Assembly: GCA_964016885.1 (NCBI GenBank)
Contig: OZ024741.1
Coordinates: 62,434,001 to 62,498,000 of the forward strand
DNA: 64,000 nucleotides
Direction of reading: 5' to 3'
Source of the DNA: Eledone cirrhosa
Taxonomy: Eukaryota
Shown piece by piece: positions 1,696 to 61,688 of this stretch. The notes under the pieces are model-generated. The model searched no databases. It was not told the origin of the DNA and saw only the letters and a list, made by a program, of their open reading frames with translations. Position 1 is the stretch's first letter; every line of letters starts with the position of its first letter. Made by a program: the position numbers and the translations under genes.

Positions 1696-1840
1696 TATAT
1701 TTAAAAGTTAAACAAGGTTCAATGAATAAATCAAAGAATGAGTTTTACAATAGATTGGAAGTACTCAACAGCTTTGGTTTTCCAGAGTTATTAATATTAA
1801 TTCAAAATATTAACAAAATAGATATTCTTGTGATCAAGTA

Positions 1841-1907
1841 TATTTTATTATACATATTTCAGAGGTACTGAGTTAACTTCAACAGTACGTCCTCATCAGA
1901 TAAAATA
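1841..1907 (-). ncRNA. Type I hammerhead ribozyme motif
   Basis: Reverse-complement copy of 3935-4001. Confidence 0.8.
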
Positions 1908-3934
1908 AGATGATGCATGACATACCCTGACATAGTAGATGGTTAAGATTCAGTCATGGTAGTGAGTAATATATGACAAAACTCAATATTTATATACCTT
2001 AATATTGAGAACATGAGAAAAATATATAATACATACAATAGAGAGGGTGCGTGTGAGACAGCTGAAAAAATACTTGACATCAATATAACTGTTAAATAAT
2101 TTAAATTACTGAAGAAAGAGGAAAGAAAAGAAAAGCATAGATGAAGAAACAGATGAGGGGATAATAGTAGGGGCCTAGAAAAGCAAAAGAGAGTTGATTA
2201 CAGAGAGAGAGAGATAAAGAGGAATAACTTATGCTCAAGTCCGTATATACAATATATATCTAAACATATCTGGTTGACCGTTAATATTCAAAATATTTAA
2301 TTTAAGTTAGTTCAGAGTAATGAATAATATTTTAGGTTTTAAAAGTTAATAGGTATCTGTATTAATATTAAAGTATACTATCAAATTTAATTTCTAAAAT
2401 CAAATTTTATGAAATTAAATTTAAAGGATTTACAAACACGAGAAAAAAACATAATGTTTTTACAACCTCACAAAAGTAAACTTTACCAAATTTATCATAC
2501 AATTCTAACTTTACTAATAATGATTGTAATTATTTATTTATTTATTATATGTATATCGTTTCACTAATACCTATAATACTCTCTCTATATATTTGAACAA
2601 ATATGTTTATCTAGTATAATAACATGCTCGTAGTTACGTTTATAAGTAATTTAGATACTTAAATCACTCTCTATTTTTATAAGAGTTAGATATTTCCTTA
2701 ATGTTCGAAATTATATAATGATTATTACTTAATTTAATTTAATTTATTTTTTTTAAATTAAATTTAGATTATATCCGGGTCATTCAAATCCTTAGCTCCT
2801 CTTTCTATCACCTTCGTTGGACATTTTAGAAGTATCTTTTGTCTACTATATAATAAAACCCTCTTGCATTTTAAACTATATTTTTTTAATATTGGGCATT
2901 TTTATGTTTCGCAAACAATTCATTATTTTTTCACTTCTTTTAACTTTTTATTTTTTCACCTTTTATTTTGTATCTAGTCCTTATCCTTAGGACTCATGAA
3001 GTTTTGACTTATATATTTATAGTATATATCTATTAAATGGTCCTTTTACAATAATTGATCTAAAACATTAATTTTTAACAATATTTTCAGTAACTTATTT
3101 ACTATATTGTATTATATTATGTATGTTTGAAAGGTATCATCTTAAATCTTTAGACAATATAATTTTTGTGTATTTTTTTATATAAACACATATATGTAAT
3201 TTAAAATTCAAACCTTTTTAAGTTTAATTATAAGGCCAGTTGATCCTTTAGGCACCCAAATTGTTAATAATAAATTCTTTAAAAATTATAACGGTAATTA
3301 TTTTCTAAATTATATTATATAAACTGTTGCCAATATTATATGATAAATTTGGTAAAGTTTACCTTCGTGAGATTGTAAAAACATTATGTTTTCTTTCTCG
3401 TGTTTGTAAATCCTTTAAATTTGATTTCATAAAATTTGATTTTAGAAATTAAATTTGATAGTATACTTTAATATTAATACAGATACCTATTAACTTTTAA
3501 AACCTAAAATATTATTCATTACTCTGAGCTAACTTAAATTAAATATTTTGAATATTAACGGTCAACCAGATATGTTTAGATATATATTGTATATACGGAT
3601 AATTGTCTAAAGACTTGAACATAAGTTATTCCTCTTTATCTCTCTCTCTGTAATCAACTCTCTTTTGCTTTTCTAGGCCCCTACTAACTATATTATCCCC
3701 TCGTCTGTTTCTTCCTCTATGCTTTTCTTTTCTTTCCTCTTTCTTCAGTAATTTAAATTATTTAACAGTTATATTGATGCCAAGTATTTTTTAAGCTGTC
3801 TCTCACGCACACTCTCTATTTTTTCTCATGTTCTCAATATTAAGGTATATAAATATTGAGTTTTGTCATATATTACTCACTACCATGACTGAATCTTAAC
3901 CATCTACTATGTCAGGGTATGTCATGCATCATCT

Positions 3935-4001
3935 TATTTTATCTGATGAGGACGTACTGTTGAAGTTAACTCAGTACCTCTGAAATATGTATAATAAAAT
4001 A
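3935..4001 (+). ncRNA. Type I hammerhead ribozyme motif
   Basis: Stem I TATTTTAT/ATAAAATA; CTGATGA; stem II GGACGTACTG...CAGTACCTCT; GAAA; near-palindromic stem III TATGTA; AUA site. Confidence 0.8.
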
Positions 4002-5059
4002 TACTTGATCACAAGAATATCTATTTTGTTAATATTTTGAATTAATATATATATATATCATTTATTGGTGCTAGTAATTGGCCGAAACGTATTTAAGTTA
4101 GCGTCGGAACAGTTATACATTTATATAGGGAAGACAGAAGTTGTAATGGAACTTCTGTTCCTCCCCTTCTCCGATATCTACGTTAATATCGTAATACATA
4201 TTCATGGGGTAGGTTCATATGACCAAACAAACCGAGGCATTCCAAGCCCTCAAGGAACGAATTGCATCAGAGTGGAATCTTGCGATATTATGGGAAATGT
4301 CCTGGTTGAAGTTTGGAATGATCGTATGTTACCTATAATTTGTTGCAAACAACAAAAATATTTGAAGTAATTATGTGTCCCTTGTCACAACTGCCAAAAT
4401 GCATAGCAACGACTAGATAGAGTGCACACATGTGTGAACGTGCGCATACAACCCGACCCGTGGGTACATATATAAGTGTCTACGTAAACATTGTTGGTAT
4501 TGTCATATATCGCCAGGACCTCTATCTCAAACCGATAAGATAGTCAATGTATCACATAAAATCTATGGGAATGTGCAAGGTAGTAGGCTAGACTAAATTC
4601 AATTATATTGAGTTAAAATAGGGTCAAATATGTTAGTAAAATAAAAATAGACTAGAATAGAATAAAATAAAACAAAATAACAAAAAATAAATTGGGATGA
4701 TATGAAAGGGAAATAGAAAGTACATACAATAAATTGAATTAAAATAAAATGAAATAAAATAAAATAAAAAAGTGAAGAAAAATAAAGAAAAATGCAGAAA
4801 AGATATATTAAATGTGGAAAGAGGATTAATGCATGTAGTAAGCTGAATTATGTAAGTTAGTTGTCTTTATCTCTTTGTGTCTAAAAATGGTAGCGGATGA
4901 ACTCGGGCCGATGGCTGCGTGGTGAACGCATCAACCTAATCATCGACCTCAGAGAAATATGTTTATTAACACATTGGAATACATTTATGAAGAACTTCTT
5001 ATGGCCTTCGCTATCATTTACTACACACACACACACATGTGTGTATATATATATATATG

Positions 5060-5239
5060 AGGAAAAAATGCGTTCCCTTTACCGGTTTCACAGTTCTTTA
5101 CCGGTTTCACAGTTCTTCTGCTTTTCAAAAGTTGAATTAAGATGCAGGGTTTGCGGTTGCATTTCGATTTCATCTTTTTTCCTTATACTTTCATTCGTGT
5201 AGGACATCTCGTTTTTTTTATTTAAAAACCCCTCATTTT

Positions 5240-5243: not shown

Positions 5244-5306
<63 letters not shown>

Positions 5307-5313
<7 letters not shown>

Positions 5314-6253
5314 TTAGAAACACACAGATACATGCGGACACACACATATATACATGAATGCATCCGCACCCAACTGTGAGTTAAGGGTGCCAACTTCGCC
5401 GATGTTGCTCAATGAATGACTGGGACAGACCAATTCAGTTGAACCAGACTGAACCAGTATCAGAGTTAAAAATTCATTATGAAGAGAGAAGAAACATTTA
5501 GATATAATTAGTAATAAAATGTATCATACCTAAACTGCTCCTAAATTCCTCGACTACGTAGTTTCGTGGCATAAACAAAAACAATATATCATAAAGACAT
5601 AGAGTTTAGGTATGATACATTTTATTACTAATTATATCTAAATGTTTCTTCTCTCTTCATAATGAATTTTTAACTCTGATACTGGTTCAGTCTGGTTCAA
5701 CTGAATTGGTCTGTCCCAGTCATTCATTGAGCAACATCGGTGAAGTTGGCACCCTTAACTCACAGTTGGGTGCGGATGCATTCATGTATATATGTGTGTG
5801 TCCGCATGTATCTGTGTGTTTCTAAATATATTGTTAATAACTCCCTCTGGTCGAGCAATCTTTGAAGTGTGGGGACAGCCGGAAAGCTTCCATGACTCAT
5901 ACTTCTCGCCTTCTTCACCACCTCTTCTACGGCCTCGATATAAATACCCCCTCCGCCTCCGTGGTATTTTCTTCAGGGTTATAAGAGGCTTAGCTCTGTT
6001 TCTCGACCGTTATATCGCGTGACTATCTCCCCCTCCGCCTTTTGGGATTCTTTCTCACGTCGTGTAGACGCGTTCTTGAGACTAGTAAAATGAGGTATCC
6101 TCTTGATAAGTCGGCAGACCTCGCAAGGACTCTATGTCTTTATGATATATTGTTTTTGTTTATGCCACGAAACTACGTAGTCGAGGAATTTAGGAGCAGT
6201 TTAGGTATGATACATTTTATTACTAATTATATCTAAATGTTTCTTCTCTCTTC

Positions 6254-11817: not shown

Positions 11818-14315
11818 GAAAGAGATTTAAGAGAGGAAGATGCGACCTCGACTTCACCTCTTCCCACCCCACCCACACTAAACACTCCATTCCCTACTCC
11901 CAACTCCTCAGGATCCGCCGCCTCTGTAGCCGAGATGCTGACTTCGAGTCCCAGGCCCTTTCCCTAGTCAGCCATTTCATCCGCAGAGGTTAACCACCTC
12001 TCTCGTCCACACCGCTCTCACCCGCGCCCATGCTATCCACCGCTCCACCAGCCTAACCTCACGCCACCGCATACCCACCCACCGTCTCCCCTTCCCCATC
12101 ACCTACCACCCCTCCACCTTACCCCTCAACCGCACCATCCGCCGCCTCTTCCGACGCCTCCAGTCCGACCCCTCCACCTCCCACATCTTCCCAACCCCAC
12201 CACTCCCCTCCTTCAAACGCACACGCAATCTCCGCACCCACCTCGTCCACAGCTCCCTCCCCCTCAACCCACGCTCCCCCCCGTTCCTTTCCTTGTTCTA
12301 GGCCCCGCTGCAACACCTGTCCCTACATCACCAACACCACCACCTTCCAGGGTCCAAACGGCCACTCTCTCTCTGTCCGGCATGCCTTCCGCTGCACCTC
12401 CTCCAACCTAGTCTACGGACTTCGCTGCACGGAGTGCAGCGCGACTTATGTCGGACAGACGGGACGTCGCCTGGCGGACCGATTCACTGAGCACCTCCGG
12501 GATATTCGTCTCGGTGGTAGTTCCCCCATCGCCCGCCACTTTGGTGGCCCTGGACATTCCGCCCGCCATCTCACAGTCTGTGGCCTACTCCAATGCCACG
12601 GAACACCCGCCAATCGCCTTAGAGTCGAACAAAGAACCATCTTCATCTTACAGACCCACACTCCCCCCGGCCTGAATTCCCCACCCTTATTCCTTTAGCC
12701 TTCAACCGCCCCCCTCCCCCCACACTTATCCCCCACTAACACCACTAACACACCCCTCCTTTTCACCGCCCCCCCCCATAACTAACAATACCAACACCTC
12801 CACTCCACCCCTCATCCGACCACCCTTCCCCAACTAACATACTAACATCCCTCCCTTCTCCTCCCCCTCCTTATCACACGCACACACCCACCGGCACATA
12901 TATACACGCGCTCACACTAAACACACACCCTACTACCACCACTAACCTTCACCCCCACACCTCCATCCCACCACCCCCGCAACTAACCTCACTAACACCC
13001 CCTGACCCCAAGCACACGAACACACGCACCCACTTACACCACCCACCCCACACGCAAATAACATCACTAACACCCCCCCCCAACCCGCACACGTACCCAC
13101 ACACCCTCGTACACCACCAACTCTACACACCCTACCACCACTAACCCCCACTCACACCTGCATTCAACCCTCTCCCCACCTCCCGTATACTAACACCCAC
13201 TAACACCCCCTTCATCGAACTACACACACACCAGTACACCACACTCCCTCCATAGAACTACACACACCCTTCTCACCCCGCTCCACCCACACCCTTTCAC
13301 CACACTCACTCATCCCACTAACACCTCTACTAATACACACACACACCCTCCTCACTCCAACTTTCACACCTACCCATCCTCGCCCCTTTACCATTCCACC
13401 CGACTGCTGCTATGCCCTCTGACCACCTCCCAGCACAAACAGACACACAGCACTCCCACCGCCTTGACCACTTCCTGTTGCGCGCGCACCCCACATCTCT
13501 CCTCTTCCGACCATCTCTTCATGGAATACTCGAATGTGGAACTTGACCACCGTGGAATCTACTAAAATCATAGGAGTTTACCAACATTTCAACCTCATCC
13601 TCTTACGGAATCACCTATATAACTCACCCACATACACACCCCAAACATTTTTTTTCTCCCATACGCCACCTACACCCACAACACGCTTAAACCCCACACA
13701 CACGTGCTTTCCACCACATATTTACACCCTCAGCCTCCGGATTCCTCACCCCCCCCCCCCACTCCTCTATCCACACACGCACAGACACTCCGACCTACAC
13801 CCCACCCTACACACACCTCCTCCTGAACATGCAACCCCGTTCTTCCCCCAAACCTTGCTTTCACATACACACACACACACACGTACACCTACACACACAC
13901 ACACCACCTTCAGCCCTCCCCGCTCGGACACCCCGTCTCCCTCTCCCCACTCCACCCGCCACCACCCCTACACACCCCACACCCTTCCACCACCTGTTTT
14001 ACCCCTTTTTAATTTCAGTTTATTTTGATCATGCTTTTATATTTATTTTTATTTCATTTCATTTTATTTTGATCATGCTTTATTTTTATTTTTATTTTTA
14101 ATTTCATTCGCACCGTTTCCTCCCACCCCCTTTTCACTATATGTCTCTCCACCACTCCCCTACACACCCTTTGAACTCTGTTCCCACACACTTCTCACAT
14201 GAGAAAGGGCTTATGCCCGAAACATCGTTCCCCACCACCACCCCACTCTCCAGAGCGTGAAATTAATAAACATTCGTTGTACTGCCTCTCTGTTTTGTTC
14301 CTGTTCAAATTTTCC

Positions 14316-15914: not shown

Positions 15915-18900
15915 CACTCTGTATAGCTCTACACATCATCACAGAAGTGAACCTAAACATCGAGTGCTCACCCGGGTGAACCTGCAGTAACTCCTTGTTA
16001 CACCCACTGGATATTTAGCTCCTTTATTTGTCGAGCCCTTACACGGAACACCATGGAATTGTTCTACAACACTTCCTCCCTAAAGGACATTCCTTTACCT
16101 TCGGAAGATGTCTACATGGACCTATTACTAAAGCAGACAAACAATTTCATCAGGAGGATCCGTTGGAGGGCCTACCACTACAACAACAGGAGGGCCCCTG
16201 GATCAATTGACAATCCCACCAACCACATAAAAAGACTTTTCAAATCAACCAAAAACCCACCGCACAACCCACTCCTTGAGCAATTTAACAGCAGGATTAT
16301 TACCATGATCCGGACAATTAGATTCAGGAAGTGCATTCCTGTCCGGGCTCGCCCCTACCTTTAAAAAGATCAAGAATAGCACTGGAATTATTGTACCAGC
16401 AGATAAAACTGGAAACCTATATAATTTAGAGTACAAAACATACAACAAATGCATTACAAACGAAATCTCTAAAATATACAAAACATCAACACGAGAAAAC
16501 CTAGCACACATAAATAAACAGGCGAAATCAATAATGACCGAACTGAGTATTGACGACAGGACCTTTCCTTACAACCCTAGGACACCGAGAATATCCATTA
16601 AAGACCATAAACCGACTTCCAGTCAAAACTACCGGTCAGGCTCATAGCCCCTTCCAAATCGGACCTTGGTAGACTTAGCAAATCAATCATTGACCGAATC
16701 TTACCTGAACTTAAGATTAGAACTAAACTCAGCCTATGGTCTTGTACAAAGAAGGTAATAGACTGGTTTTGTGCCATTGAAACTAAGTCGAATGTTCGAT
16801 TAGTCCAATTGGACATTACGAACTACTACGCATCTATATCCCCAATCATCCTTAACAAGGCACTGATCTCAGCCATGAACAGATCAAGCCTCACTAGAAG
16901 AGAAGTAGACATAATAATAACAGCTAGGAAAACTTTACTAGAATTCGACGGAAGACTTTGGGAACGACAGAATAGACCAGATAGCTTCGACATCACCATG
17001 GGATCGACTGACTCGGCACAGGTTACAGATGTAGTAGGCATATACCTCCTAAACATATTAACGGCCGAGATCCCCCTCCTTGGGCGGTGGCTTATACCGG
17101 GATGATGCCTACTAATGGCCCGTGGACTTAATAACAGCCAACTGAATAGAATACACAAACGACTTAGGTACATCTTTAAGACCCAAGGTTTAGTAGTAGA
17201 AATTGAACCTAACAATAGGACAGTTAACTTCTTAGACGTCACCCTAGAATTAGACTCGGGCCTCTACCGCCCATACCACAAACCTAATGAAAATCTTAGA
17301 TACGTCAATAGACACTCCAACCACCCTAAGAGCATAATTAACTCTATAATTAAAAGCGTCTCCAACAGAGTGTCCACACTGTCGGCTAACGAAAACATCT
17401 TCAAGCAGCACGCGGAATACTATGACTCCGCACTTATAAACGCTGGTTATACTGAGAGGATTTCTTACATCGACCCAAATAGAACCGTAACACAGCTAAA
17501 CATAGCAGAACCCTTAGAAACGAACTTAGAAGAAACCTCCACACATAGAACACACAATAACCTTAGACACCCCCTAGCCGGCAGCACAGACAGCACCACA
17601 CATAATTGTCTAGGAGATAAAGCCATACTCTCCAGCCCCAATAACAACTTCGACTATCGCACACGTTTGCGTACCAATAGAGACAAGGGACATAACACCA
17701 ATAGATTACCTGGAACCCATTTGAAACATACGCCTGACCAAAACACACACAAACTACCACCCAACCACAAAAACCTCACTAAACAACGCATAAACCGAAG
17801 TAGACCTGTCACGTGGTATACCCCCCCCCCCCCTCCTATTCTATACACGTCGCCACTAACATACCGGGAACCTTTTTCAGGGCTCTCGAACAATCTTTTC
17901 CACACACACACAAATACCACAAGCTCTTCAATAAACACACCGTAAAATTCTCTTTCTCCACACCACCAAACCTAGGCCACACAATAGCACACAATAATAG
18001 GGCAAAAATACAAAAACACATGGTTTCCCTTCAACAAACCACCACCACAACCCAGAACGAAACCACACACACAACACAACACAACAACACACACACACCA
18101 CCAACACCGCACGACACCAACCGCCATCGTGCCACCGCACCGGTTACACCCAAATGCAACTGCAAAAAACGAGAGGAATGCCCACTAAACGGGGAGTGCC
18201 TCGTTAAGAATATTGTTTACCGGTGTGATGTCACAGCCGGCAATAAGGAGTACTCATATATAGGTGCGACATCCACAACGTTTAAGGAGCGCTGGTATAA
18301 CCACAGACGCTCCTTCAAGCATAGATCGAAACGACCCCAAACAAAACTGGCCGACCTGATCTGGGACCTCAAGGACAAGAACATTGAACCCCAGATTTCG
18401 TGGTCAGTAAAAAGACGCGTGGCATACATCCCCAGTGACAGAAACCACTGCAGATTATGCCTAGCCGAGGCGGCGGAAATAATTAAACTTGATTGCGCCA
18501 TAAACTATAGGTCGGACATAATTGTCAATTGCAGACACACTAGGATGCACACCTTTTCTGCACAAACTTTCGCTGGAGCACTAAGCACTAACCATGACCC
18601 ACCATAATAATAACCACATCTGCCCCGTATTACCATCGCCCATCTCAACGAACTTTAATTCTAATCTAACTTCAATTTATCTTATTTCATTGCATTGCAT
18701 TTAACCATATGTAAGCCCGTATTTTGTATATCATGCCGCATACATAACCCACACCAAAAATCACACTAACCACGACACACCATATTAATAACCACATATA
18801 CCCCGTCTCAACATCGCCCACCTCAATGAACTTATTGTATTGTACTCCATGTAAGAATTTCTAAGCCCGCATGTGTATATCATGTCGCACGCATCACCAT

Positions 18901-23504: not shown

Positions 23505-23583
<79 letters not shown>

Positions 23584-23590
<7 letters not shown>

Positions 23591-23934
23591 GTGAGGTTTT
23601 TTTTACAAAATGAAAAATAACCGAGGTGTCCTACACGAGTGGAAGTATAAAGAAAAAGGGATGAAATCGAAAATGCAACTGAAGTCTTATTTTTTTAAAA
23701 ATATATATATTTATTTGGTTCCTTTACCGGTTTCGCAGTTCTTCTGCTTTTCAAAAGGTGAGTTGAGATGGAGGGTCTGTGGTTTTTCTCACATGTGAGA
23801 AAAACCACAGACCTTCCATCTCAACTCACCTTTTGAAAAGCAGAAGAACTGCGAAACCGGTAAAGGAACCAAATAAATATATATATTTTTAAAAAAATAA
23901 GACTTCAGTTGCATTTTCGATTTCATCCCTTTTT

Positions 23935-23941
<7 letters not shown>
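23584..23941. mobile_element. Family B element as near-perfect palindrome with two U3-A8 HHRs (23721-23758 -, 23829-23866 +)
   Basis: Arms 23646-23793 and 23794-23941 centred on CACATGTG; CCTT-TTGAAAA-GCAG(AAGAA)CTGC-GAAA-CCGG-TA-AAGG. Confidence 0.85.
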
Positions 23942-24023
<82 letters not shown>

Positions 24024-26986: not shown

Positions 26987-27190
26987 TATTAACAAATGGA
27001 AACTATATTTATAAAACCATATTTATTTCATTATACATATTTCAAGGGCCACCAAGGCAAACTATGGTGCGCTTTCATCAGATAAAATTTAATATAGGTT
27101 AATTTTATAAATAAATATTGTGTTTTATATCAGTTATAAAAATATTTTGCTTGTTGTATCCCAACAAATTAAATATAACCTCTACATAAC
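26987..27190 (-). mobile_element. Family C HHR element (HHR 27025-27088)
   Basis: ATTTTAT-CTGATGA-AAGCGCACCA...TGGTGGCCCTT-GAAA-TATGTA-TA-ATGAAAT; homologous to 58310-58715. Confidence 0.8.
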
Positions 27191-30257: not shown

Positions 30258-30404
30258 CACACACAGAAATGTATATATATTTCTTAGAACAAAATTATTA
30301 TTAATGTTTTGCTGTTCATAACAATTGGAATTGAATAATTACTTTTGAAATTATTAGTTATTTTACTAATGCTTAGATATGTAAAAATGAAGCAATGTTT
30401 CTAA

Positions 30405-30595
30405 TAATTGTTTCTACTTTTGGCACAAGGCCAGCAATTACCCAGTACATTACTCGTACTTTATTTTATCGACCCCGTGAGGATGAAATGCAAAGTTAAC
30501 CTCGGCGGTATTTGAACTCAGACCGTAAAGGGACGTAACTCCATGCTATGAAGCATGGTGTCCGACTCTCTACAGATTCTGCCAATCCACCGCCC
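30405..30595 (-). mobile_element. tRNA-derived SINE (family S1)
   Basis: Reverse complement of the 50100-50295 family. Confidence 0.88.
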
Positions 30596-33446: not shown

Positions 33447-36345
33447 CTAACAGCGCTGCGATCGAATGTGGCTTTTTAGCCCAGTCAATGATCTAAAATG
33501 TCTTGCACAGAGTCGGCAACCAAAACATTCACTGGGAATAGCCGGCTGTGGTTGGAGTTCATGTACTTTTGCATGTCGCTTGAGCCCTCCTGCTGATTTA
33601 CATTCCCTACCACATGCTTGGCAAGCATGATGAGTAGCATCTCCAACAGTAGCCTGGTAGTCAACCACTGGTCTTACTTTATGACTGCGAAGATGACTTT
33701 CGAGTCCAGCTTTGCTTAGGCAGAGTCTCGCACAGACTCTGCATGTCAGCACCATAGGAGGACCCTCTCCGTCTGGAAGTGCAACAGCAATGCGCTTCCT
33801 CACATCCCGCTTTACTTTCACGTATGCGATTCGAGATGCTTCAAAGGCAACTTTTCCCTCATATATAGTCTTTCTCCATTTATTACGATCAGCAGCCATA
33901 TTTTCCCATGTATCAGCAGCGATGTTAGCGTCTTTCAAAGAAGCTTTCAAGGAATCCTTATACCTCTTTTTGGGTTTATGTTGCGGTCGTTTTCCTTTAA
34001 CTAACTCTCCATAAAAGAGTTGTTTTGGTATTCTAGAATCCTTCATTCTGGCAAGGTGACCACTCCAACGGAGTCGCTGCTTAAGCACAAGAGCTTCTAT
34101 ACTGTCACGCATAGAGCTTTCCAAAATCTCGATATCACTGATGTGGTCCCTCCAGTGAACGCCATGGATCCGTCTGAGACACATCTGATGGAAACGCTCC
34201 AATTGCTTAAGGTGGTGTCGATATGTAATCGAGGTCTCGCAGGCATAAAGAAGAGAAGAGAGCACACATGCCTTGTACACCTTTACCTTTGTCTTCTTGT
34301 ATATGTCTCGCTGACCCCAGAGTCGCCTTTTTAGCTTTCCGAAAGCATCATCTGCTTTCCTAATCCTAAGTGAGATTTCACTATCAAGGTTGCTGTATCG
34401 ATTGACAGTGCTTCCCAGGTAGACAAACTGATCAACCACTCCAAGTCGTTTACCATAAACATAGATATTTTGTTCACTGTACTGCTTAACAGGGGCAGGT
34501 TGGTACATGACGACGGTTTTCTTGAGACTGACAGTTAATCCTAGGGCAGTGCAAGCGTCAGAAAATGCATTCAAAATGTGCTGCATATCACTCTCTGTAT
34601 GCGCTACAAGATCGCAATCATATGCATACAAGAGGTCTCTTATGATTGATGTAAATACCTTTGTCTTTGCAGCAAAGCGCCTGATGTTAAATATGCTGCC
34701 TGAGGTTCTATATCGGATGTAAACACTATGCTCGCAATTCCTGAATGCAATACAGAAAACCATTGCAAAGTATATGGCAAACAGCGTCGGTGCTGGAATA
34801 TCCCCCTGTTTCACTCCATTTTTTACTGAGATAGGCTCCGACATGTTACCTCCGACATTAACCCAAGCCTTCATGTCGTCATGGAAAGACCTAACTAAAG
34901 CAAGGAACTTATCAGGGCAACCAAGTTTCTGGAAAACCTTCCATAATGCATTTCTGTTAACAGTATCGAAAGCTTTTGTCAGATCGACAAAAACCTGATG
35001 CAAATCCAAACCTTGTTCCATGCACTTCTCCTGGAGCTGTCTAGCTGAGAAGATCATATCAGTAGTGCCGCGTCCAGCACGAAAACCAGATTGACTTTCA
35101 GGAAGAACACAATCTGCAATGTGTGTCAGCAGACGGTCCAGAAGCACCCTACATTAAACTTTCCCTACGACAGAAAATAATGATATACCTCTGTAGTCCC
35201 CACAATCATTCCTGTTACCCTTTCCCTTGTACAAGACCACCATTACTGCATCTCTCCAGTCCTCAGATACGGATTCATTTGCCCATATCCTGCCAAACAA
35301 AGAGTGAAGATGTTGCAGGAGTTTCTCACCACCATATTGTAGGAGCTCAGCATGTATGCCATCCATACCTGGAGACCTTCCACTGTTCAGCTTCGAGATA
35401 GCCACTGCAACTTCCACAAGCGTCGGAGGTTCTGCGAGAGCTACTTTCACAAGACTTTCTGGAATGAGATTGAGGAAATCTTCACTAACGACAGACGGCT
35501 GGTTCAAAAGATCATCAAAGTGCTCTCGCCACCTTCGTAGAATTCCTTGTGTGTCACGAAGAAGTTCTTTGCCATCCTTGCTGCGAAGCGGTGTCACCAG
35601 AGAAGAAAAACGGTCCATAAACCTCACGCAAGAGACTGTACAAAAGTTTTGTCTTATTGGAATCTGACGCAGTTTGTATCTCACCAGCCTTCTCACTCCA
35701 CCACTGATCCTTCATCTGAGAAAGACTCCGCCTAACACGTGATTTTACATCCCTGAGTTCCTCGTGCAACGTATTCCTTTCCTGTGGTTTTGCCGTCAAG
35801 TAGCGTGACAGAGCACGCCTCTTATCAGCCAACAAATCTTCTATATGTACATCATTCTCATTTAACCAGTCCTGATGTTTCCTCTGCACCAATCCCAGAA
35901 CACGCCTGTCTACATCATAAACTGACTTTTTAAGGGTCAGCCAATCCTCACCAAGATCTGAAGCCTGCATCTCTTCTTCCAATGTCCTCTTCACATTTTT
36001 AATCCTTAAGGCGAGCAGCATTCAATCTTTTGGGCAGGGCAACACCAGGAGCCCGGATTTTACGTTTAGTGATTAGTTTCACTTTTGCGCGTACCAGGCG
36101 GTGGTCCGTCCAGCACTCAACCCCACGAAGAACACCAACACACTGCACATCCCGTCTGTCACGCACCCTAACAAGGACCCACTCTGCCAATGTATGTATG
36201 TATGTATGTATGTATGTATGTATCAAGGAATCCCTGTCAAGCAGCGTCCGTACGTTCCAGCAGCCAAGACTGAATGCCTTGTTTGGCTCTATTACAATAG
36301 CACGATGACGAGCGGGCCCAGGCTGTGATAACCTGGGGACCCTGC
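33447..36345 (-). pseudogene. RTE-clade LINE ORF (APE remnant, RT, three zinc-finger repeats), disrupted
   Basis: LGCWNVRTL; WTDHRLV; SPGMDGI; YRGISL; QSGFR; FVDLTKAFDTV; GVKQGD; catalytic YADD reads YAYD; YLGS; RLRWSGH; most of APE is missing and replaced by (CATA)n at 36191-36223. Confidence 0.93.
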
Positions 36346-36744: not shown

Positions 36745-39700
36745 TTACAGACACATACTCAGAGAAGGCCCATTCATTCGGGCCATACTTGCTTCTCTCA
36801 CCCATCTTTCAACAAAATGCTGGGAAGAGAGCACTTCCCTCTCTACCCTGATTTTCCTTTTCAAATGAAATTTGAAAAAGTTAATCAGGGCATCACCGAA
36901 GAGGTAAGTGCTCGTCTTCAGCCCTTTCAAACGTGTCCACCATACTATCTCTTTCGCCATGGCCACCAGACAGATAAAAACTGCCTGCCCTTCCAGGCTA
37001 AAGGAAGGGGGCGGGGCAATCCTCACGATGGACTCAGCTGATAGCTGGATCCGTCCTACACGTGACAGCAGGTGTTCGACATAAACCCACAAGTCAGCAA
37101 TGCTCGGACACTGGACGAGTGCGTGCAGGACGGTTTCGTCGCCCTGCGCGCATCTCGGACATGCCCGGCTGACGGCACCTCCATGCCTGTAGAGTTTATC
37201 CGGAACTGGCAAAGCTCCTCGGTAGCACTGCCAGGCCAGGGATTTCTGGAAGTTGTCCATAGGCCCCGGCCCGAAAGTCCTTCCGAAGAGATTGGCTAGT
37301 TGATTTTCGTCGACGCCTAGAGTTTCTCCAAGTACGTCGTCGCTCTTCCCCTCCACTAATCCCCTATAGAACGCCAAGGTGGAGTTTCCCCCGATCACAT
37401 TGCCCGATTGGTCGAGGGCTGTGAGCGCCTGAAGACATTCCAGTCTCCAAGCGCTCCCTCTCGGTCTTCGCTTGACCCAGGACTGCAGCTCCGTCAAGGA
37501 GACGAGCTGGGGAAAAACGTGTCTTGCAAACGGCGACCACACCTGATCACCGTCGAGGAAGAGGTGGAGATGTCGTAGCCTGAGCGCGTGTCTGCGCATC
37601 ATCAGCCACGGCATGCCCAGCCCTCCACGTAGCGGGGGTGTTGACAGCAGATGGACCGCCTGACCATCGGAGCGCGTCCCTTCCACAAGAAGCGAAAGAG
37701 CAAACGCTCCAGCGCAGTCAGGCGAGGCTTAGGACAAGGTACGACGGTCAGGCGGTAGCAGATGACAGACGCGATGTACGCGTTAGCCACCTCCGCTCGA
37801 CCTTTCAGGGATAACTTCCTCTCCGCCCATTTCTGGGTGAGAGAAGCCACCCTGCTCGTCACCTAGTCCCAGTTTTTGTCCGTCTGGAGGTCCGGACCGA
37901 ACCAGACCCCTAGCAATTTAACCGGTCCGTCCGTCCAGCGCCCGACGACGCTGTTGGACGGCATGGACCTGCCTCTCCAGGTGCCGAGCTGCAGGCCCAC
38001 TGACTTTTCCTGGTTGATCATTGCTCCTGTCACCGCTTCGTATTCTCTTAGTGTAGTGCCGATCGCCTCGATGTGTTTGGCGTTCGACACCACTACGGTG
38101 ACATCGTCCGCATATGCTGACACGGATCTTCCGCATCCTAGTTCGCGCGGGACTCCCCTCAACGTCTCCAGTTTGTGCAGTAATGGCTCGAGAGTCAATA
38201 CGTACAAGAGCGACGAGAGGGGACATCCTTGGCGGACCGAGCGCATGATGTTGAACGGTTCCGACAGGTGACCGTTCACTCTCACCACAGAGCAGATCTC
38301 GCTGTGCATGGCAGCGATCCAGCCTCTGAAGACGGGCCCAAAGCCAGCCGCCCTCAGGACGGCCGCTAGATAACGATGGTCGACCCTATCGAAAGCTTTC
38401 GACTGATCTAAATTGATCAAGGACCCACCCGTTCCAGGTTCCTTAGCTACCCTCTCTATGATGTATCGCATGAGGTGGAGGTTGTCGTGGATGGATCTGT
38501 CGGGAATGGCGCATGTCTGCGCCTCTCCCACCAGACCACCAACGACAAGCGCCAACCTCTTTGCTAGCACCTTGGCCAAAATCTTGAACTCTGTGTTTAG
38601 CAGAGTTATGGGCCGGAAATTGTCTATGTTATCCCCCTTGTTCGGATCCTTTCTCAGCAGTGCCACCGCTCCTCGGCTCACAGAACTCGGAATTCTCCCG
38701 TTCTGTTGCCAGTTGCAGTAGACGTCCGCCAAGAGGCCTCCGAACAAGTCTGGCATCTGTACGTAAAGTTCATAGGGCAGACCATCCACACCAGGCGATT
38801 TACCCCTTGTGCAGCCAGTCATTGCCTCCGTTACTTCAGCGGCTGTTATCGGCTTTTCGCAACACTTCGCCTCAGTGGCCGAGAGCCGCGGCAGTCCGTC
38901 GAGGTAGACACTAAAGTCCATCCCTCTACCCGGCCCACCGCTGCCCCCGAACAGCTGAGCGAAGTGTCGCTGAAAAGCTTCACACATTTGCCCGGGATCG
39001 AGTAGCATGCGCCCGTCGTGGTCCACCAAAGACCGGATCGTGGCTTTGTTGCCACGACGCGCCTCCGCCACTCGGGCCCATTGAACGGCTTTCGTCCCCT
39101 CGTGTCTGAGAGCACGCACCCTAGCTCTGACAACGCAGCCTTCGTGCTTTGCATTGAAGAATTGGTCAAGGGCCAATTTCGCCGCAAGCACGTCGGTCGC
39201 AATGCCTTTGCTAAGCGCCTCGTCTAATTTTCTAACTAGTTCTCCCTCTGCTCTATTTTTCTCTATTGCTAAAGCCTTACTAAACCTAATCGATTCTATT
39301 CTAATCGCTCTTTTCAGAGCAAACCACCACTTGTTGTTGACGATGGCCCCCGTCAACGCCCGCTTAACTAGTTCGCTAATCCGGTCTCTGTAGGCCTTGC
39401 GCGCTGGTAAGGACGCGTTTAGCTTCCAGTAGCCGGGTCCTCGTCTATGAAGCCTATCTAAGTCAAGCACACAGATCACGAATTTGTGGTCCGTGTAGCT
39501 GACTATCTTGGATTGTGGACAGCCTATGCTAGACCTATCTATTTCCCTACAAAATACTCTATCTAGATATGATCTGGATGACCCTATGCGGTTTGTCCAA
39601 GTCCACATTGGCACATTCGGGAAATCCAATCGGTTCCTGTCAGACAGTTCAAAACGCCTGAGCAGGTTGGTGAGGCTCTTGCACCCTCCACCCCTATCCG

Positions 39701-40166
39701 CTAATCCCACACAGTCCCAGCGTGCATCTAAGATCCCGTTCCAGTCGCCCACTAACACTAAAGAGCGGGACGTTCCAAGAAAGGTCTCCAGACGCCGGAA
39801 GAAATCAGGCCGCCCTGCTCCTGTCGGGGCATAGACGGCCACTAGCCTGAAAGCTTGCCCGTCTCCGCTGGTCACGTCCAGCACCACCAGCTTACCCTCT
39901 GGGTCCAGGAAGATGGCCCGTATGGCGAGATCCAAACCTCTCCGAAAAAGCACAGCAACTCCTCCACCGGATCCAGGACGGCTGGGAGATGCGTACACAT
40001 CGTAGCCGCCGAAGATCGGTGCGAAGGCCCGTGCTTCGGAGATTCTGGTCTCGCTGATGGCCACTACATCTATGTTTAGTGACCTGAGGTCGTTGAGCAG
40101 GTGACCCTGCTTCCATGACGACCACAAGCCACGCGCATTTATGCTGCCTATTCTGAGTGAGGTCAT
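36745..40166 (-). pseudogene. Tx1-like ORF2 (APE-RT-CCHC) with one in-frame TAG (37863) and one frameshift (~37636)
   Basis: SINARGL, SET, VYAP, GDWN, YLDR, TDH; SPGVDGLP; FRPITLLN; LDQSKAFDRV; RQGCPLS; AYADD; CPRC..ETVLHALVQC. Confidence 0.93.
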
Positions 40167-40201
40167 GTTTAAAATAGAGTGGAAAAGATGGGAAAGACCA
40201 C

Positions 40202-42298
40202 TTACCGTACTTTTGGTAGAGGAGGGATGGTTTTTACATCCCTTTTCACTTGATCGTCTGGTGAAGGGACCGTTGAATCGTCCCTTCGGCTGGTCGTCGG
40301 CTCTTCTAAGAGAATGTCTGAGTATACTCTTCGATTGATGGTTCCTCCTAGGTCCCTGAAATCACCAACTGCGTTGGGGAATTTCGTTTTAATGTTTGTG
40401 TATTGTTTCTGTGCTATTTTTAGCAGTCTTATGTTAGTTGGCGTTTTGATTGGTGCTGGTATTATGTAGTCCTGTTGTGAAATGTCTGTGTGTTCAATTA
40501 TGTAAGCCATTAGTTTCTTGTTGTGTGTATTTATTGCCGTGCATTTGTTTTTCTGGGGGTGGGGTGTGGTTCTGCTATTTTCTTGTCGTTCTTGCTGGGT
40601 GTGTGTGTTTTGTTGTTGTGTTTGCGATGTTGGTGCTTGTGGTGGTGGTGTTGAAGGTGTTGTTGGCGGTGGGGTTGTCGCCGGTGGTGATGGTGGTGCT
40701 GGTGTGGGTGGTGATGGCGTTGGTGGTGTTGCTGCTGTGGGTCTCTTTGCAGTAGACTTTACCCTTTTCTCATTTCTTTCCTCCCTTTTCAAAGGCGACG
40801 ATGCGCTGCTTCTGCGTTTGTGCCTTCTTGCGACCTTTTGCCATCCCTCTCCCACCTCACACTCCATGTCTGATTCTGTGAGGTCGGGGAGGGGTACCAG
40901 CTCCACTCTTTCACTTGTTGTTGTTGGTGATGTTTGCACTGGAGTCTCTGTTGCAGCTGCATTTGGTATTGCTGTTGTTGTTGTTAATATTTCCACTGCT
41001 GCTGCTGTTTTTGATTTCCGTGGAGTGGGTATGGGTGCCACGGACCTATCGTTCCTGGTTGCCGCTTGTCCTGTTGCTGGTAGCCGTGGAGCCGGATTCG
41101 GAAGGAGGGGGGTTTTCTCCTTTCTCAGGGTCTTCTCGTTGCAGAAGGCCCTGAGGTGAGTCTTCGATCCACAGCGAAAGCATTTCGGGCGTTTGCCCTC
41201 AACACTTATGGGCAGTTGAGTGCCGTTATCGAAGTCTATCACATCCGGAATAGCTTCGATGCACTCCTGGTTGGTTTGGATTAGCATCTCAATGGAGGAG
41301 CCGACCCAATCTTCTCTTACTTTTTTCTGTACTTGCAGTACAGTTGTTTTGTCCTCGATTCCGACGAGGACAGACGCGGCCAGCCAAGAAGGGGTCATTC
41401 CGGGGGGGACGTGGGTCAGTTTGACCCTCACAATTTTTTGCCCGCAGTAGGAGGGCACCAACACCATTTCCTCGCTCCTTAGGGTCACTACTGATTGGGC
41501 CTTTGCCTCCTGGGGTGTGGCAAAAAGTACGTCTACGGTGGCATATTTTTTGCCTCGGGTGATGTGCGTTTTCCGCTGCCACACAGACCCCAAGGCTTTT
41601 TGTATTTGGGCCTCTGTGGCTCTTTCCACCCTACGGGATTTTGTACTTACTGTACGGTACGTGACCGTACATTGCTCTTGGGTTTCGAAAAATTTTTCCG
41701 CTGCCTTGCAGATTGCTCGGTGTCCGTTCTTTGTCACCATCTTCTTCGCTTCCTCTAATTCCTCATTTGTTATGAGGATTGTTTCCAAGTTTTTCGTAAT
41801 ACCTGCAAATGAGATTGGTTTTTCTCTGCTGTTGTTGTTGTCGTCAGAGCTGCTGGTACTTTTGTTGTTGCTGCAGGTACTACGACTACTGCCTCCGCCG
41901 CTGTTGCTGTGGTTGTTGTTGGTGTTGCTGCTGCTAATGCTGTTGTTGTTTATGCTGCTGGTGATGCTGTTGCGGCTGCTACTGTTGTTTTCATTGTCAC
42001 TGTTGCTGTTGTTATTACGGCTGCTACTGCTATTATTCCTGACGTCAGACGAATGAACTGGGTTTTCGTATTTCCCGCACACCTGTTTCGTCGCTGTCGT
42101 CGTCGTCGTGGAGAAACCTTGCACGCTTTGCACGAGACTTTTCTTTTCTTTCGTCACTTGCGAAAGAGAAGGGAGGGAGAGAGACACATTTAAAGAAGGG
42201 AGGGAGAGAGACAATCTTCTCTCTGCTGTAGTGATGATTGAGGAAGAAGAAGACGGAATGAGTGGGAGTGACATATGAAATTTCTTTTTCGTAGCCAT
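40202..42298 (-). CDS. LINE ORF1 gag-like protein with CCHC zinc knuckle
   Basis: 698-aa open ORF; CFRCGSKTHLRAFC; low-complexity N/S and P/T tracts; ends just upstream of ORF2. Confidence 0.88.
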   Translation of the reverse strand: MATKKKFHMSLPLIPSSSSSIITTAERRLSLSLPSLNVSLSLPSLSQVTKEKKSLVQSVQGFSTTTTTATKQVCGKYENPVHSSDVRNNSSSSRNNNSNSDNENNSSSRNSITSSINNNSISSSNTNNNHSNSGGGSSRSTCSNNKSTSSSDDNNNSREKPISFAGITKNLETILITNEELEEAKKMVTKNGHRAICKAAEKFFETQEQCTVTYRTVSTKSRRVERATEAQIQKALGSVWQRKTHITRGKKYATVDVLFATPQEAKAQSVVTLRSEEMVLVPSYCGQKIVRVKLTHVPPGMTPSWLAASVLVGIEDKTTVLQVQKKVREDWVGSSIEMLIQTNQECIEAIPDVIDFDNGTQLPISVEGKRPKCFRCGSKTHLRAFCNEKTLRKEKTPLLPNPAPRLPATGQAATRNDRSVAPIPTPRKSKTAAAVEILTTTTAIPNAAATETPVQTSPTTTSERVELVPLPDLTESDMECEVGEGWQKVARRHKRRSSASSPLKREERNEKRVKSTAKRPTAATPPTPSPPTPAPPSPPATTPPPTTPSTPPPQAPTSQTQQQNTHTQQERQENSRTTPHPQKNKCTAINTHNKKLMAYIIEHTDISQQDYIIPAPIKTPTNIRLLKIAQKQYTNIKTKFPNAVGDFRDLGGTINRRVYSDILLEEPTTSRRDDSTVPSPDDQVKRDVKTIPPLPKVR

Positions 42299-42513
42299 GT
42301 TGTTTTTTGTTTAAAATGAAATTTTGGGTACAAAACCCCAATAACTGGTTATTTAACCCCAAAGGGCCAAATAACGGACAGAAAGACCCCTCTCACGAGG
42401 AGGAGGGTGTCTTTATCAACAATTTGGTTCAAGTTTTAAACAATTTACAATTGTTTTAACGGTTAAAAATTACTATACCTGACAGAGCCGAGCCTCCGTC
42501 AACCATGGCATTC

Positions 42514-42572
<59 letters not shown>

Positions 42573-42576
<4 letters not shown>

Positions 42577-42712
42577 TGTTTCTACTTTAGGCACAAGGCC
42601 AGCAATTAATCAGTGCATTACTGGTACTTTATTTTATCGACCCCGTAAGGATGAAAGGCAAAGTCAACCTCGGCGGGATTTGAACTCAGATCGTAAAGGG
42701 ATGTAACTATGC
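42573..42712 (-). mobile_element. SINE S1, 5'-truncated
   Basis: Matches the S1 body and tail. Confidence 0.85.
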
Positions 42713-43152
42713 TTATCATATTTAAGATGAAAATCCCCAGAAGATCCGTGACTTGCGCTGAGTCCGATGATCCCATGGTAATGTCGAAGTTTCTATTTCT
42801 ATCTGAGCGGGTCCAATACTCATTGTTGAAATTAATTAGAGTTCTTCTAGCATTTAATATGATATCGATTTCATCCGTAGTTAGATCTGTATGCTTGTAC
42901 GTGTAGGATAAAGCCTTATTTAGTAGGTTAGGCGTAATGGAAGAGTAATAGCTTGTTATGTCCATCTGGATGAATTAATGGGTTTTCTTATCATCTATAT
43001 TTTTATACCAATCAATTCATTTGTATCCTTCCACAAGCTCAATTTAGACATCAATTTCAAAATAGGTAGAATTCTATCAATAATATTCTTAGTGATTACT
43101 CCAATATCCGATTTGGATGGAGCAATCAGTCTAACTGGCAGGTCTTCCTCAA
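42712..43152 (-). pseudogene. PLE RT internal fragment (third family of the same clade)
   Basis: [14 protein letters not shown]; MDITSYYSSI; FDITMGSSDSAQVTDLLG. Confidence 0.88.
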
Positions 43153-43303: not shown

Positions 43304-43359
43304 ACTGCTATATATATTTCGATGATACCCATTGAATGGCTATGACCTCATCAGGCAGT
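43304..43359 (-). ncRNA. Type I hammerhead ribozyme motif
   Basis: ACTGC-CTGATGA-GGTCATAGCCAT(TCA)ATGGGTATCATC-GAAA-TATATA-TA-GCAGT, followed by AAATAAA. Confidence 0.82.
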
Positions 43360-44443: not shown

Positions 44444-47102
44444 TTATCCATATAGCTTGAGGAAAGTTCCCGACCTTAGGTGTCTGCAGGCACCGAATAA
44501 GTCGGCCCTTCTGTTTAATAGCTTGGTTCCGCCATGAAGTATCTCTAGTGTCTCACTAAGACAGAGGTTGCAAATACCAGACCCGCCTCTGTCTGGGGGA
44601 ACCTTTCTAACCACGGACCAGACCAGAGAGTGTGGAGTCTTTTCAAGTTTGAGCTTCCAGATCAATTCAGAAAGGGCCGTACATTTCCTCTTATCTATTC
44701 TGTTAAAGGAATGGCGGTGGTTATACCACCGATCTTTGAATCTCGTCGCTGTGGATCCTATGAGGTGGTGCTCCGAGTTAGGGGTTGTGACCTTGCACCT
44801 GTAGACTACGTTTTTCGTCATGCATTCATTACTAAGGGGGCATAGTGATGGGTCTCTGCAATTACATGACTTCTTAAGCCCCGCCACATGTACCGCGTGG
44901 TTACCATCACTCGGAGTTGGCTGGCTAGCCTCCGCAATCAGCACAGGTTCGTTGGGTTCTGGTGTGCTAGTTTGGCCTGTCCGGGTTCCGGTGCGTCCCG
45001 CGTGCTGGTTCTGTTGGGTGGCTCCTGGGTTTACGGTGGTATTAAAGGCAGTGAGCCTATTCCTATTTATGCCAGCTATCTGCTGGGCTACGGAGCGTGT
45101 GGTTGAGTAGAAAAGTGTCACCGTGTGCTTGTTGAATATTTTATGGTATTTGTGGGCCCTAGGGAAACATTTATCCAGTACTCTAAAGAATGTTCTAGCC
45201 AGGCTGGTACGTAGACCCACCGAGTACGGAGGGTTATACCATGTGACCTTCCTGGTCCTATTCTTGCGGGGTTGTTGGGTGTCCGCCGTGGTCAATCGCG
45301 TGGTTGTGAACAGCTCAGGTCGAGCTCGGTTGGTGTCACTCAGGTGCGCGGAGCGGTCACTATCATGAGGGTTATATGGGACCACCGTGGGACTATAAAC
45401 CTGTGAGGTGCGGCCTCCCTGCTCAATTAGGGTTCGGCGGGTGGTGGGGCCGGTGCAGGGGTGCTTATGCTCCGCAGCACAGTGGTCTTCAGCGTTGTAG
45501 GTATTAGACCGGTGGGGTATGCGGGACCTTCTACCGGGGGTGGTGACGTATAGGGGTCTGGGAGTGTTACTACTGGTCTCCGAGGAATTAGGTGGACGAC
45601 TCATGCCCCTGAGGGTATTGGTCCGGGGTACCCTTGGGTCATCTCGATCATGTCCCTGAGGGTTGTAGCTGATCCTATGGCTGTGGGACGTCTTGGTTAG
45701 CGCTGAGTTATAGTAATCAGCGTTACTATTGAAGATCTCTTTATTGGCGGACAAGTTAGAGATCCTGTCAGAGACACTCTTAACTCCAGCCTTAACTATA
45801 GATCTAGGGTGATTGGACCCAGCGTTGATATACACCAGCTTCTCATTAGGTTAATGATATGGGTGGTGTAGCTTGGTGTTGAGGTTGAGGGTGGTGTCCA
45901 GGAAATTCCCTAATTTTCTATTGGGTTCCATCTCTACTTTAAGTCCTACCTTGCTAAAGAAGTGCCTAATTCTCCTCTTCATATTTTCGACCATTGTGGT
46001 GCTGTGGTCCACTACGGTGAAGAGTGCGTCGTCACGGTACAGCCCGCCACCCAAGTTGGGTATTTCTCTCCTGATCTCGTAGAGTATGTATATCCCAACC
46101 AGGTCCGTTAGCTGCGCGGAGTCACTGGAGCCCATTGTAATGTCAAAATTATTTGGCCAGTCGCTCCGGGTCCATATGTCCCCACCGAATCGGATTAGGG
46201 TCTTTCTGGCGGCGTGTGTGATTGGGACCTCGTCGCGTGTTAGGTCTATCCTATTCATCGCGAATATGAGTGCCTTGTTCAGGACTATGGGCGAGATAGA
46301 GGAGTAGTAATTGTTGATGTCTAGTTGTATGAAGCTAGTCCTATGTTTGTCAGGTAAAAATGTAAACCAGTCCAGCACCTGGCTGGTGCAGGACCAGAGT
46401 TGTAACCTTATTTTACTCTTAAGTGTGGGCAGGATCCTATCTAAAATGTTTTTGCTAATAACCCTATGTCTGACCGGGAGGGGGCTATCAGTCTGACCGG
46501 CAGGTTAGACTCGAAGTTTGGTGTGTGGTCCTTAATGGTAATCCACGGCTCCCTTGGTTGGTATGGGGCCGTCCTATCATCTATAACAAGACCAGATACG
46601 ATCTCATAAGCCTTGATGTTGATATCCTCCAGGGTAGCCTCGGGCGTTGTTTTGTAGCTTTTTCTCAATTCCCTGAGGATTAGCTGATGGTAAAGTTGAA
46701 CGTTCATGCTGTAAAGGTTGTTGGTTTTGTCGGCATGGACAAGTATTCCTGTAGATTCCTTAAGCTCGGTAATTCCATTTTCCAGTCGTTCAAGGTACTC
46801 GCGACCCCGGTATGGTTGGTCGGAAAATTTGATGTCGGAAATGATGCCAATCATTTCGTTCTCGAACTCTTCCAATAGTCTCTTGTGTGTGTGGGGGGAG
46901 GGGGGTGGGTTCTTCTTGATATGAAGAGGCACTCCATGGTTTTTTGGTTATTAATATTGGGGTTTCCTCTATCAAAGTGGTAAGCCCTCCACCTCATCCC
47001 TCGTATTAGGGAGTTAGTACTCTTAGTGAGATTCCTGGTGTATTCACTTTTACCCGGTAATGGTATATCCTTCAGTGATGCCAGAGTGGTGAGTTTATTC
47101 AT
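44444..47102 (-). pseudogene. Second PLE RT plus C-terminal GIY-YIG ORF, disrupted (probably Hydra clade)
   Basis: SLKDIPLP..RGMRWRA; ADKT; DINNYYSSI; GGGLYRDDA; WYNPPY; CNCRDPSLCPLSNEC; NVVY...LIG; CNLCL; CRH. Confidence 0.93.
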
Positions 47103-47749: not shown

Positions 47750-47991
<242 letters not shown>

Positions 47992-49904: not shown

Positions 49905-50472
49905 GTGGCAGTATCGGTAGAGAGTCGGACGCCATGCTTTCCAGCATAGATACGTCCTTTTACGGTCTGAGTTCAAATCCCATCGAGGTTAACTTTGCCT
50001 TTCATCCTTACGGGGTCGATAAAATAAAGTACCAGTAATGTACTGGATAATTGCTGGCCTTGTGCCAAAAGTAGAAACAATTATTATTATTATTATAATG
50101 GACGGTGGATTGGCAGTATCGGTAGAGGGTCGGACGCCATGCTTTGACGCATAGAGTTACGGCCCTTGCCATTCTGAGTTCAAATCCCGCCGAGGTTAAC
50201 TTTGCCTTTCATCCTTACGGGGTCGATAAAATAAAGTACCAGTAATACACTGGGTAATTGCTAGCTTGTGCCAAAGGTAGAAACAATTATTATTATAATT
50301 GTTTCTACTTTTTGGCACAAGGCCAGCAATAACCCAGTGCATTACTGGTACTTTATTTTATCGACGCCGTAAGGATGAAAGGCAAAGTTAACCTCGGCGG
50401 GATTTGAACTCAGATCATAAAGGGACATAATTATGCTAGAAAGCATGGCGTCTGACCCTCTACCGATACTGA
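49905..50472. mobile_element. Cluster of three S1 SINEs (+,+,-)
   Basis: A-box-like TGGCAGTATCGG, B-box GAGTTCAAATCC, CTTTGCCTTTCATCCTTACGGGGTCGATAAAA core, (ATT)n tail. Confidence 0.9.
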
Positions 50473-54465: not shown

Positions 54466-54892
54466 AATTATTATTATTATTATTATTATTATTGCTGGCT
54501 TTGTGCCAAAAGTAGAAACAATTATTATTATTATTATATCATTTTTATTTTCTTTCATTATTGTTTCTGAGATATATGCCGAGTGTCTTCCTGACACCTA
54601 GGGCAAATAAATTTACAGTGTGCATTGGTAAGCCAGTTAATACAGCATATTGATTATAATTTTTAAAAAAAGAAAAAAAACTGTATATATATATATATAT
54701 ATATATACACATACGCATATGCATATGTAAATACGAGGAGGGTTATCAATCTTACAGAGATAGTGCTCTTCTCAATACGTGTGCAGTAACAGTCAAAACA
54801 ATTTTTTGCACCTCGTGCAGAGAGGGTAAACCAGGAATCATTCGCAAATATTGTTATTATTATTATTATTATTATTTATTATTATTATTATT

Positions 54893-55745: not shown

Positions 55746-55756
55746 TCATATTATTA

Positions 55757-56000: not shown

Positions 56001-56352
56001 ATATTAGTAAAAGGAAAAGAAAATGCTGACAAATTTTTCCCAGTGAAAAATAGTTTAATTAGGAATAAGTATAAATTAGTAATAAGTGTTGGTTAGTATT
56101 CAGTTTTAGTTTTAAGATTTTATCGGTTGCGCATTTCTAATGCTTTTCAAAAATAATGAGATTAGAGCAAACATCACGAGCACTCTATCTCAAAATTATT
56201 TTTGAAAAGCATTAGAAATGCGCAACCGATAAAAACTTAAAACTAAAACTGAATACTAACCAACACTTATTACTAATTTATACTTATTCCTAATTAAACT
56301 ATTTTTCACTGGGAAAAATTTGTCAGCATTTTCTTTTCCTTTTACTAATATA
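56001..56352. repeat. ~157-bp-arm inverted repeat in (TA)n
   Basis: 56001-56158 is the reverse complement of ~56196-56352. Confidence 0.9.

Positions 56353-59953: not shown

Positions 59954-61688
<1,735 letters not shown>

Follow-up and report, generated by a model that had tools for sequence, protein, structure and literature searches.

The window analyzed here, a 64,000-nt stretch of the Eledone cirrhosa genome (contig OZ024741.1), contains six copies of a short motif in which a hammerhead-like core carries U3-A8 in place of C3-G8. These copies raise the question of whether the motif is a functional ribozyme, what kind of element carries it, and what the fixed U3-A8 pair means.

Copies and anatomy of the motif in the window

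The TTGAAAA core is present at all six sites listed in the original prediction, and the sequences bear out a hammerhead-type motif with a Watson-Crick pair between U3 and A8 (Table 1). On sequence only, the 3-8 pair is U-A in eight of the eight distinct rows. An exact 34-nt pattern for this family, which we call B1, gave 11,219 matches in the 3.0-Gb genome and 0 for the reversed control, so the six-copy motif is far beyond chance. The six B1 copies in the window represent four insertion sites. The copy at 23829-23866 agrees with the core rule U4 G5 A6 N7 N8 A9, G12 A13 A14, A15.1-U16.1 and H17. Its stems I and II have 4 bp each and G10.1-C11.1 is present, whereas the extra base 9/10.1 and the long stem II usual in hammerheads of Penelope-like elements (PLEs) are absent from B1, which has no insert and a 4-bp stem II.

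The differences among the copies were in part described correctly. The change of TA to CA is confined to the copy at 47780, where U16.1C breaks the A15.1-U16.1 pair and likely renders the copy inactive, and the C/T change, which falls on position 11.1, occurs at 5096 only. The CCTT/AAGG stem I, given as common to the copies, holds for three of the six (23721, 23829 and 61410), but it is reduced to 3 bp at 5096 and 47780 and broken at 61453, where the 5' strand of stem I of the + copy is gone. The 3' half of the copy at 5096 lies in a 19-nt tandem duplication (5077-5117). It had also been expected that searches for CUGANGA would miss the motif, and neither strand of 23721-23866 contains this string. 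Rfam gave no hammerhead match on 23810-23890 at E up to 10, and no hammerhead model was among the matches listed for the window (150 of 217). The sole Rfam match on 23810-23890, to MALAT1 (E 2.1), was dismissed as chance or an effect of the inverted repeat.

Table 1. Coordinates of the hammerhead motifs and associated features in the window
Feature	Position	Strand	Remarks
Minimal type I hammerhead, family B1, in the inverted tail-less arm	23829..23866	+	intact
Stem I of the 23829 copy	23829-32/23863-66	+	4 bp
Core U3-A9 of the 23829 copy	23833-39	+	U3-U4-G5-A6-A7-A8-A9
Stem II of the 23829 copy	23840-43/23849-52	+	4 bp, closed by G10.1-C11.1
G12-A13-A14 of the 23829 copy	23853-55	+	
Palindrome A15.1-U16.1 (ACCGGU) of the 23829 copy	23856-61	+	
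A17 of the 23829 copy	23862	+	predicted cut between 23862 and 23863
B1 motif identical to the 23829 copy, in the arm bearing the 3' tail of the element	23721..23758	-	
B1 copy	5096..5131	-	G-U at 10.1-11.1, 3-bp stem I
B1 copy	47780..47817	+	U16.1C
Second inverted B1 pair	61410..61486	.	copies 61410-61447 (-) and 61453 (+)
Inverted B2 pair	56119..56233	.	U3-A8 core, compensated stems I and II, C13 for A13
Last 210 nt of B1 pLTR, 5'-truncated insertion	23584..23793	-	210/210 nt identical to the 5' pLTR before ORF1 of the intact element in L224
62-nt 3' tail, left arm only	23584..23645	-	
Inverted 5'-truncated copy without tail, 148 nt	23794..23941	+	one mismatch to the left arm
(TA)n microsatellite target, left	23508..23584	.	
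(TA)n microsatellite target, right	23938..24023	.	

The two copies at 23721 and 23829 had been taken for a possible tandem dimer. They lie instead on opposite strands, one in each arm of an inverted repeat of 148 nt that has a single mismatch (23646-23793 and 23794-23941), and they cannot form a tandem dimer because a transcript contains one sense copy and its exact complement. The same layout of an inverted copy, a one-sided tail and a (TA)n target is repeated among the 30 B1 loci examined. PLEs have been described with inverted copies and one-sided tails of 30-40 bp (PMC8557442, available part), and the tail has been attributed to internal initiation of reverse transcription (PMC11167929, available part). 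Could the inverted pair itself nevertheless be a working dimer ribozyme, or a hairpin RNA recruited by the host? Both copies are intact and only 70 nt apart, a transcript over the pair is predicted to form a single 148-bp hairpin (-245 kcal/mol), and Rfam returned microRNA-precursor matches in the window. However, the listed Rfam scores are all below the gathering thresholds, and we put these matches down to the inverted repeat or to chance. Moreover, the complementary arm would sequester the single sense copy of the transcript, and inverted pairs are routine for B1, with many close -/+ pairs genome-wide, as they are for PLEs generally according to the available part of PMC8557442. We consider a function of the pair itself highly improbable; it is likely an inert by-product of insertion.

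Many other long near-perfect inverted repeats occur in the window (for example 59954-61240, 5300-5839, 1167-1579 and 1789-4053) and are likely inverted insertions of other element families. Non-LTR retrotransposon fragments with APE/RT-like and ORF1-like frames, recognized by eye, lie at 33447-36021, 36745-40361, 40202-42310 and 53200-55950. A repeat of about 200 nt with a tRNA-like head, probably a SINE, is found in direct and inverted copies (49906-50471, 30402-30595 and 42557-42713).

The Penelope-like family that carries the motif

A young family of Penelope-like retrotransposons, B1, bears this minimal type I hammerhead in its terminal repeat (pLTR), and it gave rise to the truncated copy in the window. 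The first clue to the carrier was the end of a GIY-YIG frame upstream of the motif at one locus. At 29 of the 30 loci picked by this GIY-YIG end, the motif follows downstream in the same orientation. Within the pLTR it trails the GIY-YIG stop codon by about 1 kb, and tandem units have it a second time, about 200 nt ahead of the ORF1 start. Longer stretches reveal ORF1, about 400 aa long, and, overlapping it in the -1 frame, an RT/GIY-YIG frame of 775 aa. The parent ORF matches the Pfam domains GIY-YIG (E 2.7e-6, above the cut-off) and RVT_1 (E 1.3e-6, just under the curated cut-off), and the protein contains DKG, YLDD and a C-X4-C-X2-C linker at residue 645. By its sequence, the protein would fit Neptune or Nematis. 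B1 also shows the traits of EN+ PLEs, namely partial tandems, an inverted 5'-truncated copy, a one-sided tail and a (TA)n target.

Exact junctions between the pLTR tail and ORF1 occur 79 times genome-wide, and a sense motif lies 157-167 nt upstream of the junction in 22 of the 30 examined. Two same-sense motifs 4.6-5.2 kb apart were found in 10 of 16 10-kb regions, which were chosen around junctions and not at random; three of the 16 (L221, L224 and L226) combine two such motifs with both ORFs uninterrupted. Intact pLTR–ORF1–RT/GIY-YIG–pLTR units, with two same-sense copies about 4.7 kb apart, exist in this genome. A non-LTR retrozyme was considered as the carrier and rejected, since the copies represent the truncated ends of a coding element of 4.7 kb; the 64-kb window contains no short tandem array of the motif.

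The overlap of ORF1 and RT (L224:3871-3958; L207:5707-5773) contains a U-UUU-UUA heptamer that is kept in B1 and in the sister family B2 described below. It is likely a programmed -1 frameshift site, to judge from its sequence and place, and no strong stem was predicted downstream of it. A frameshifted ORF1 has been noted for PLEs (Craig et al. 2021, PMC8557442, available part). Other PLEs are also present in the window. Two broken RT/GIY-YIG elements of another type (15957-18607, + strand; 44444-46947, - strand) have RWR and CxC-X5-C features, identified by eye, that suggest the Hydra clade, and a GIY-YIG frame with a CxxxxCxxC linker at 12057-12698 (+ strand) comes from a further PLE family.

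Core variation in B1 and the sister family B2

The original prediction described the U3-A8 core as fixed in every copy and proposed a genome-wide count of U3 and A8 as a check. U3-A8 indeed prevails in this count, but position 8 varies like the free position 7. Single changes number 79 at position 3 (42 C, 20 G and 17 A, counted by hand) versus 11,219 U3-A8 motifs, 42 at position 8 (17 of them G), 41 at position 7 and 52 at position 13. Position 3 is more variable than position 7 (79 versus 41, p 0.0007), which is the opposite of constraint; a neighbouring T run may explain the excess. The genome-wide pattern search gave no C3-G8 double change, a result that is uninformative on selection as only about 0.06 were expected. 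Since the copies drift neutrally, the fixation of U3-A8 in B1 reflects inheritance from one master, that is, common descent and not selection. Independent variation of U3 and A8, put forward as evidence that would speak against a functional pair, is seen here, yet it is not a valid test because dead copies of a retrotransposon accumulate mutations independently, no matter what the master required.

A second family, B2, is represented in the window by one inverted pair and elsewhere by several thousand copies with two loop-II lengths and its own ORF1 and RT/GIY-YIG (L067-L096, L175, L207-L211). One loop length alone accounts for 3,923 genome matches, and a looser pattern covering B1 and B2 together gave 27,083. 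All of the 100 matches listed first for the looser pattern have A7 and A8, and about 41 of them are of B2 type by a hand count. Tandem units of B2 occur in L207, L209 and L175, and none of six regions examined has an unbroken RT/EN frame. B2 and B1 are 56% identical in RT and 47% in ORF1, whereas their motifs are 77% identical versus 46-55% for the flanks. Both families keep U3-A8 and the stem III palindrome, which is however also changed in both copies of the B2 pair in the window. Stems I and II each show one clean double change from B1 to B2, counts that rest on two lineages only. B2 is without the outer stem I pair, and it departs from the core rule at the normally invariant position 13, where it has a fixed C (70 non-C among 3,923 matches). 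The B2 subfamily with a 6-nt loop has C13 too.

We also examined the 3-8 pair in other hammerheads of this genome, using our own descriptor on an 844-kb sample made up of the window and 78 ten-kb stretches at fixed positions, 20 of which adjoin the window. The 43 matches comprise 27 C3-G8, 10 U3-A8 and 6 unrelated singletons, so that positions 3 and 8 are a Watson-Crick pair in 37 of 43. The window itself supplies about four of the six B1 matches in this sample. Shuffled DNA gave 7 matches, 2 of them U3-A8. Among 12 repeated motif groups in all DNA sampled, 9 are C3-G8, 3 are U3-A8 and none is mismatched, which at the level of sequence supports a Watson-Crick 3-8 pair. As B1 and B2 are sisters, U3-A8 amounts to a single evolutionary event in this genome. 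A seeming family with a U3-G8 wobble (L075) was set aside as one altered copy of a family with C3 in L120. This further small hammerhead family (L075:1338, L120:3164, L112 and L125) has an additional base following A9 and ACGT as its palindrome, and the core positions at which its copies differ are scattered. In the window, other families contribute canonical type I hammerheads with C3-G8, at 1841-1907, 3935-4001, 27025-27088, 43304-43359, 58351-58416 and 58514-58579; they have a long stem II and an AT-rich palindromic stem III, and two sets form inverted pairs. No hammerhead tied to EN relatives was found in the sampled DNA, only fragments of other families. A descriptor that demands CUGANGA passes over about 27,000 motifs of this genome, and ribozyme censuses based on it would consequently undercount.

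Comparison of the two families bears on whether the motif has any present role. It could be a decaying passenger, functionless now and carried along by its location in the pLTR, as the neutral single changes at positions 3, 7, 8 and 13 of B1 and the great success of PLE clades without canonical hammerheads (PMC8557442, available part) would allow. However, any model predicts that dead copies decay neutrally, and no stretch of the pLTR is better preserved than the motif between these two families, whose proteins are only 47-56% identical, and its stems are compensated. We therefore regard a mere passenger as quite unlikely. Alternatively, a descendant of a hammerhead may now be retained in a role other than catalysis, for instance to pair two element RNAs through the palindrome or to bind the element's protein, with negligible cutting. 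Despite its fixed C13, B2 has multiplied to thousands of copies, spread over at least two subfamilies that differ in loop length, the palindrome and the stem II pairing are preserved in both B1 and B2, and non-cleavage functions were left open by Cervera and De la Peña (PMC4209133, available part). Nevertheless, U4-G5-A6, A9, G12, A14, A15.1-U16.1, A17 and the 3-8 pair are kept in both families, which is more than a kissing palindrome needs, and U3-A8 hammerheads elsewhere do cleave (PMC3088659, available part). A purely non-catalytic role is possible, but we lean against it.

Thousands of B2 copies with C13 and a lost outer stem I pair suggest that strong catalysis is perhaps unneeded in this lineage. 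There are two readings: C13 is tolerated by a U3-A8 core, or the lineage can do without cleavage. In the minimal fold G8 contacts A13, and A8 would remove this contact. On this rationale, the U3-A8 swap might have freed A13, and B2 would be a natural hammerhead that still cleaves despite changes at three core bases, an idea that we find unlikely. If it were true, B1 and B2 would be a ready-made pair for studying core epistasis and the need for cutting by PLE hammerheads. The literature searched on A13C, including the available part of PMC11014351, held nothing relevant; Lünse 2017 and Hammann 2012 fell outside its scope.

Predicted activity and relation to known hammerheads

A B1 monomer cannot close stem III, its target fold not being allowed, and the lowest-energy fold predicted in the local context is without stem I. 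The ACCGGU palindromes of two copies are predicted to pair at -10.3 kcal/mol, which together with the failure of the monomer favours the dimer as the likely active form, as originally proposed. In our view, the minimal type I U3-A8 hammerhead of B1 is likely to cleave at a slow rate, and as a dimer only, in transcripts of the rare intact tandem elements, with the window pair likely inert; we would put the probability of this reading at roughly 0.6. Two copies would pair through the palindrome and thereby supply stem III, and U3-A8 would stand in for C3-G8. The partners in the dimer might be the two pLTR copies within one read-through transcript, or copies on separate RNAs. A slow cut after A17 could then free a unit-length RNA from the read-through transcript, and this RNA could enter target-primed reverse transcription.

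Release of unit-length RNA was proposed by Cervera and De la Peña (PMC4209133), and U3-A8 hammerheads are natural and active in vitro (PMC3088659), according to the available parts of both papers. Several observations were counted against the cutting mechanism. Monomers of minimal PLE hammerheads are inactive and their dimers only weakly active (PMC4209133). When pairs of positions were scanned in a type III hammerhead, activity was rescued by the G3-C8 swap only, and other double mutants in this region were low (PMC9901934, available part). Naiad PLEs thrive without canonical hammerheads (PMC8557442), and B2 was weighed on the same side.

The U3-A8 variant and its PLE setting are already known, and only the core change of B2 at position 13 looks unusual. 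Novelty of U3-A8 is not supported, as the pair was published for natural hammerheads and for PLEs of Schistosoma mansoni (PMC3088659, PMC4209133), in the latter for about 1,300 Penelope-element hammerheads. As far as the available part of PMC4209133 goes, the Cercyon hammerheads of S. mansoni closely resemble B1: they are type I with U3-A8, the S. mansoni(4) entry reads UUGAAAA, and they have a short stem I, G10.1-C11.1 and a palindromic rudimentary stem III. They too lie in pLTRs of mostly truncated copies and need a dimer. B1 differs from S. mansoni(4) in its 4-bp stem II versus 5-6 bp with internal mismatches, and from the Cercyon motifs in having no extra base 9/10.1, a 6-nt ACCGGU palindrome, A17 and over 11,000 near-identical copies. 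The same alignment also contains entries without the 9/10.1 insert, for example Marsupenaeus.

The natural U3-A8 hammerheads of Perreault et al. (2011, PMC3088659) show the same 3-8 covariation as B1. In its available part, that study is a broad survey in which core mutants in repeats were rejected, whereas B1 is a minimal, dimer-type retrotransposon copy. The PLE variants of Lünse et al. (2017), as summarised in the available part of PMC6765202, share with B1 the reduced stem III, the link to PLEs and dimer cleavage. With the Neptune and Nematis EN+ PLEs, as the available part of Craig et al. (2021, PMC8557442) describes them, B1 has in common an RT with a C-terminal GIY-YIG, a CX2-5CxxC linker, an optional frameshifted ORF1, (TA)n targets, an inverted 5'-truncated copy, a one-sided tail and a hammerhead near the 3' end. 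The B1 tail of about 62 nt compares with the 30-40 bp given there for PLEs. The C13 of B2 stands apart from the alignment in the available part of PMC4209133, where the G12-A15.1 column is GAAA throughout. B1, with its intact recent elements, and B2, with C13, form a natural pair for asking whether Penelope hammerheads must cleave for mobility.
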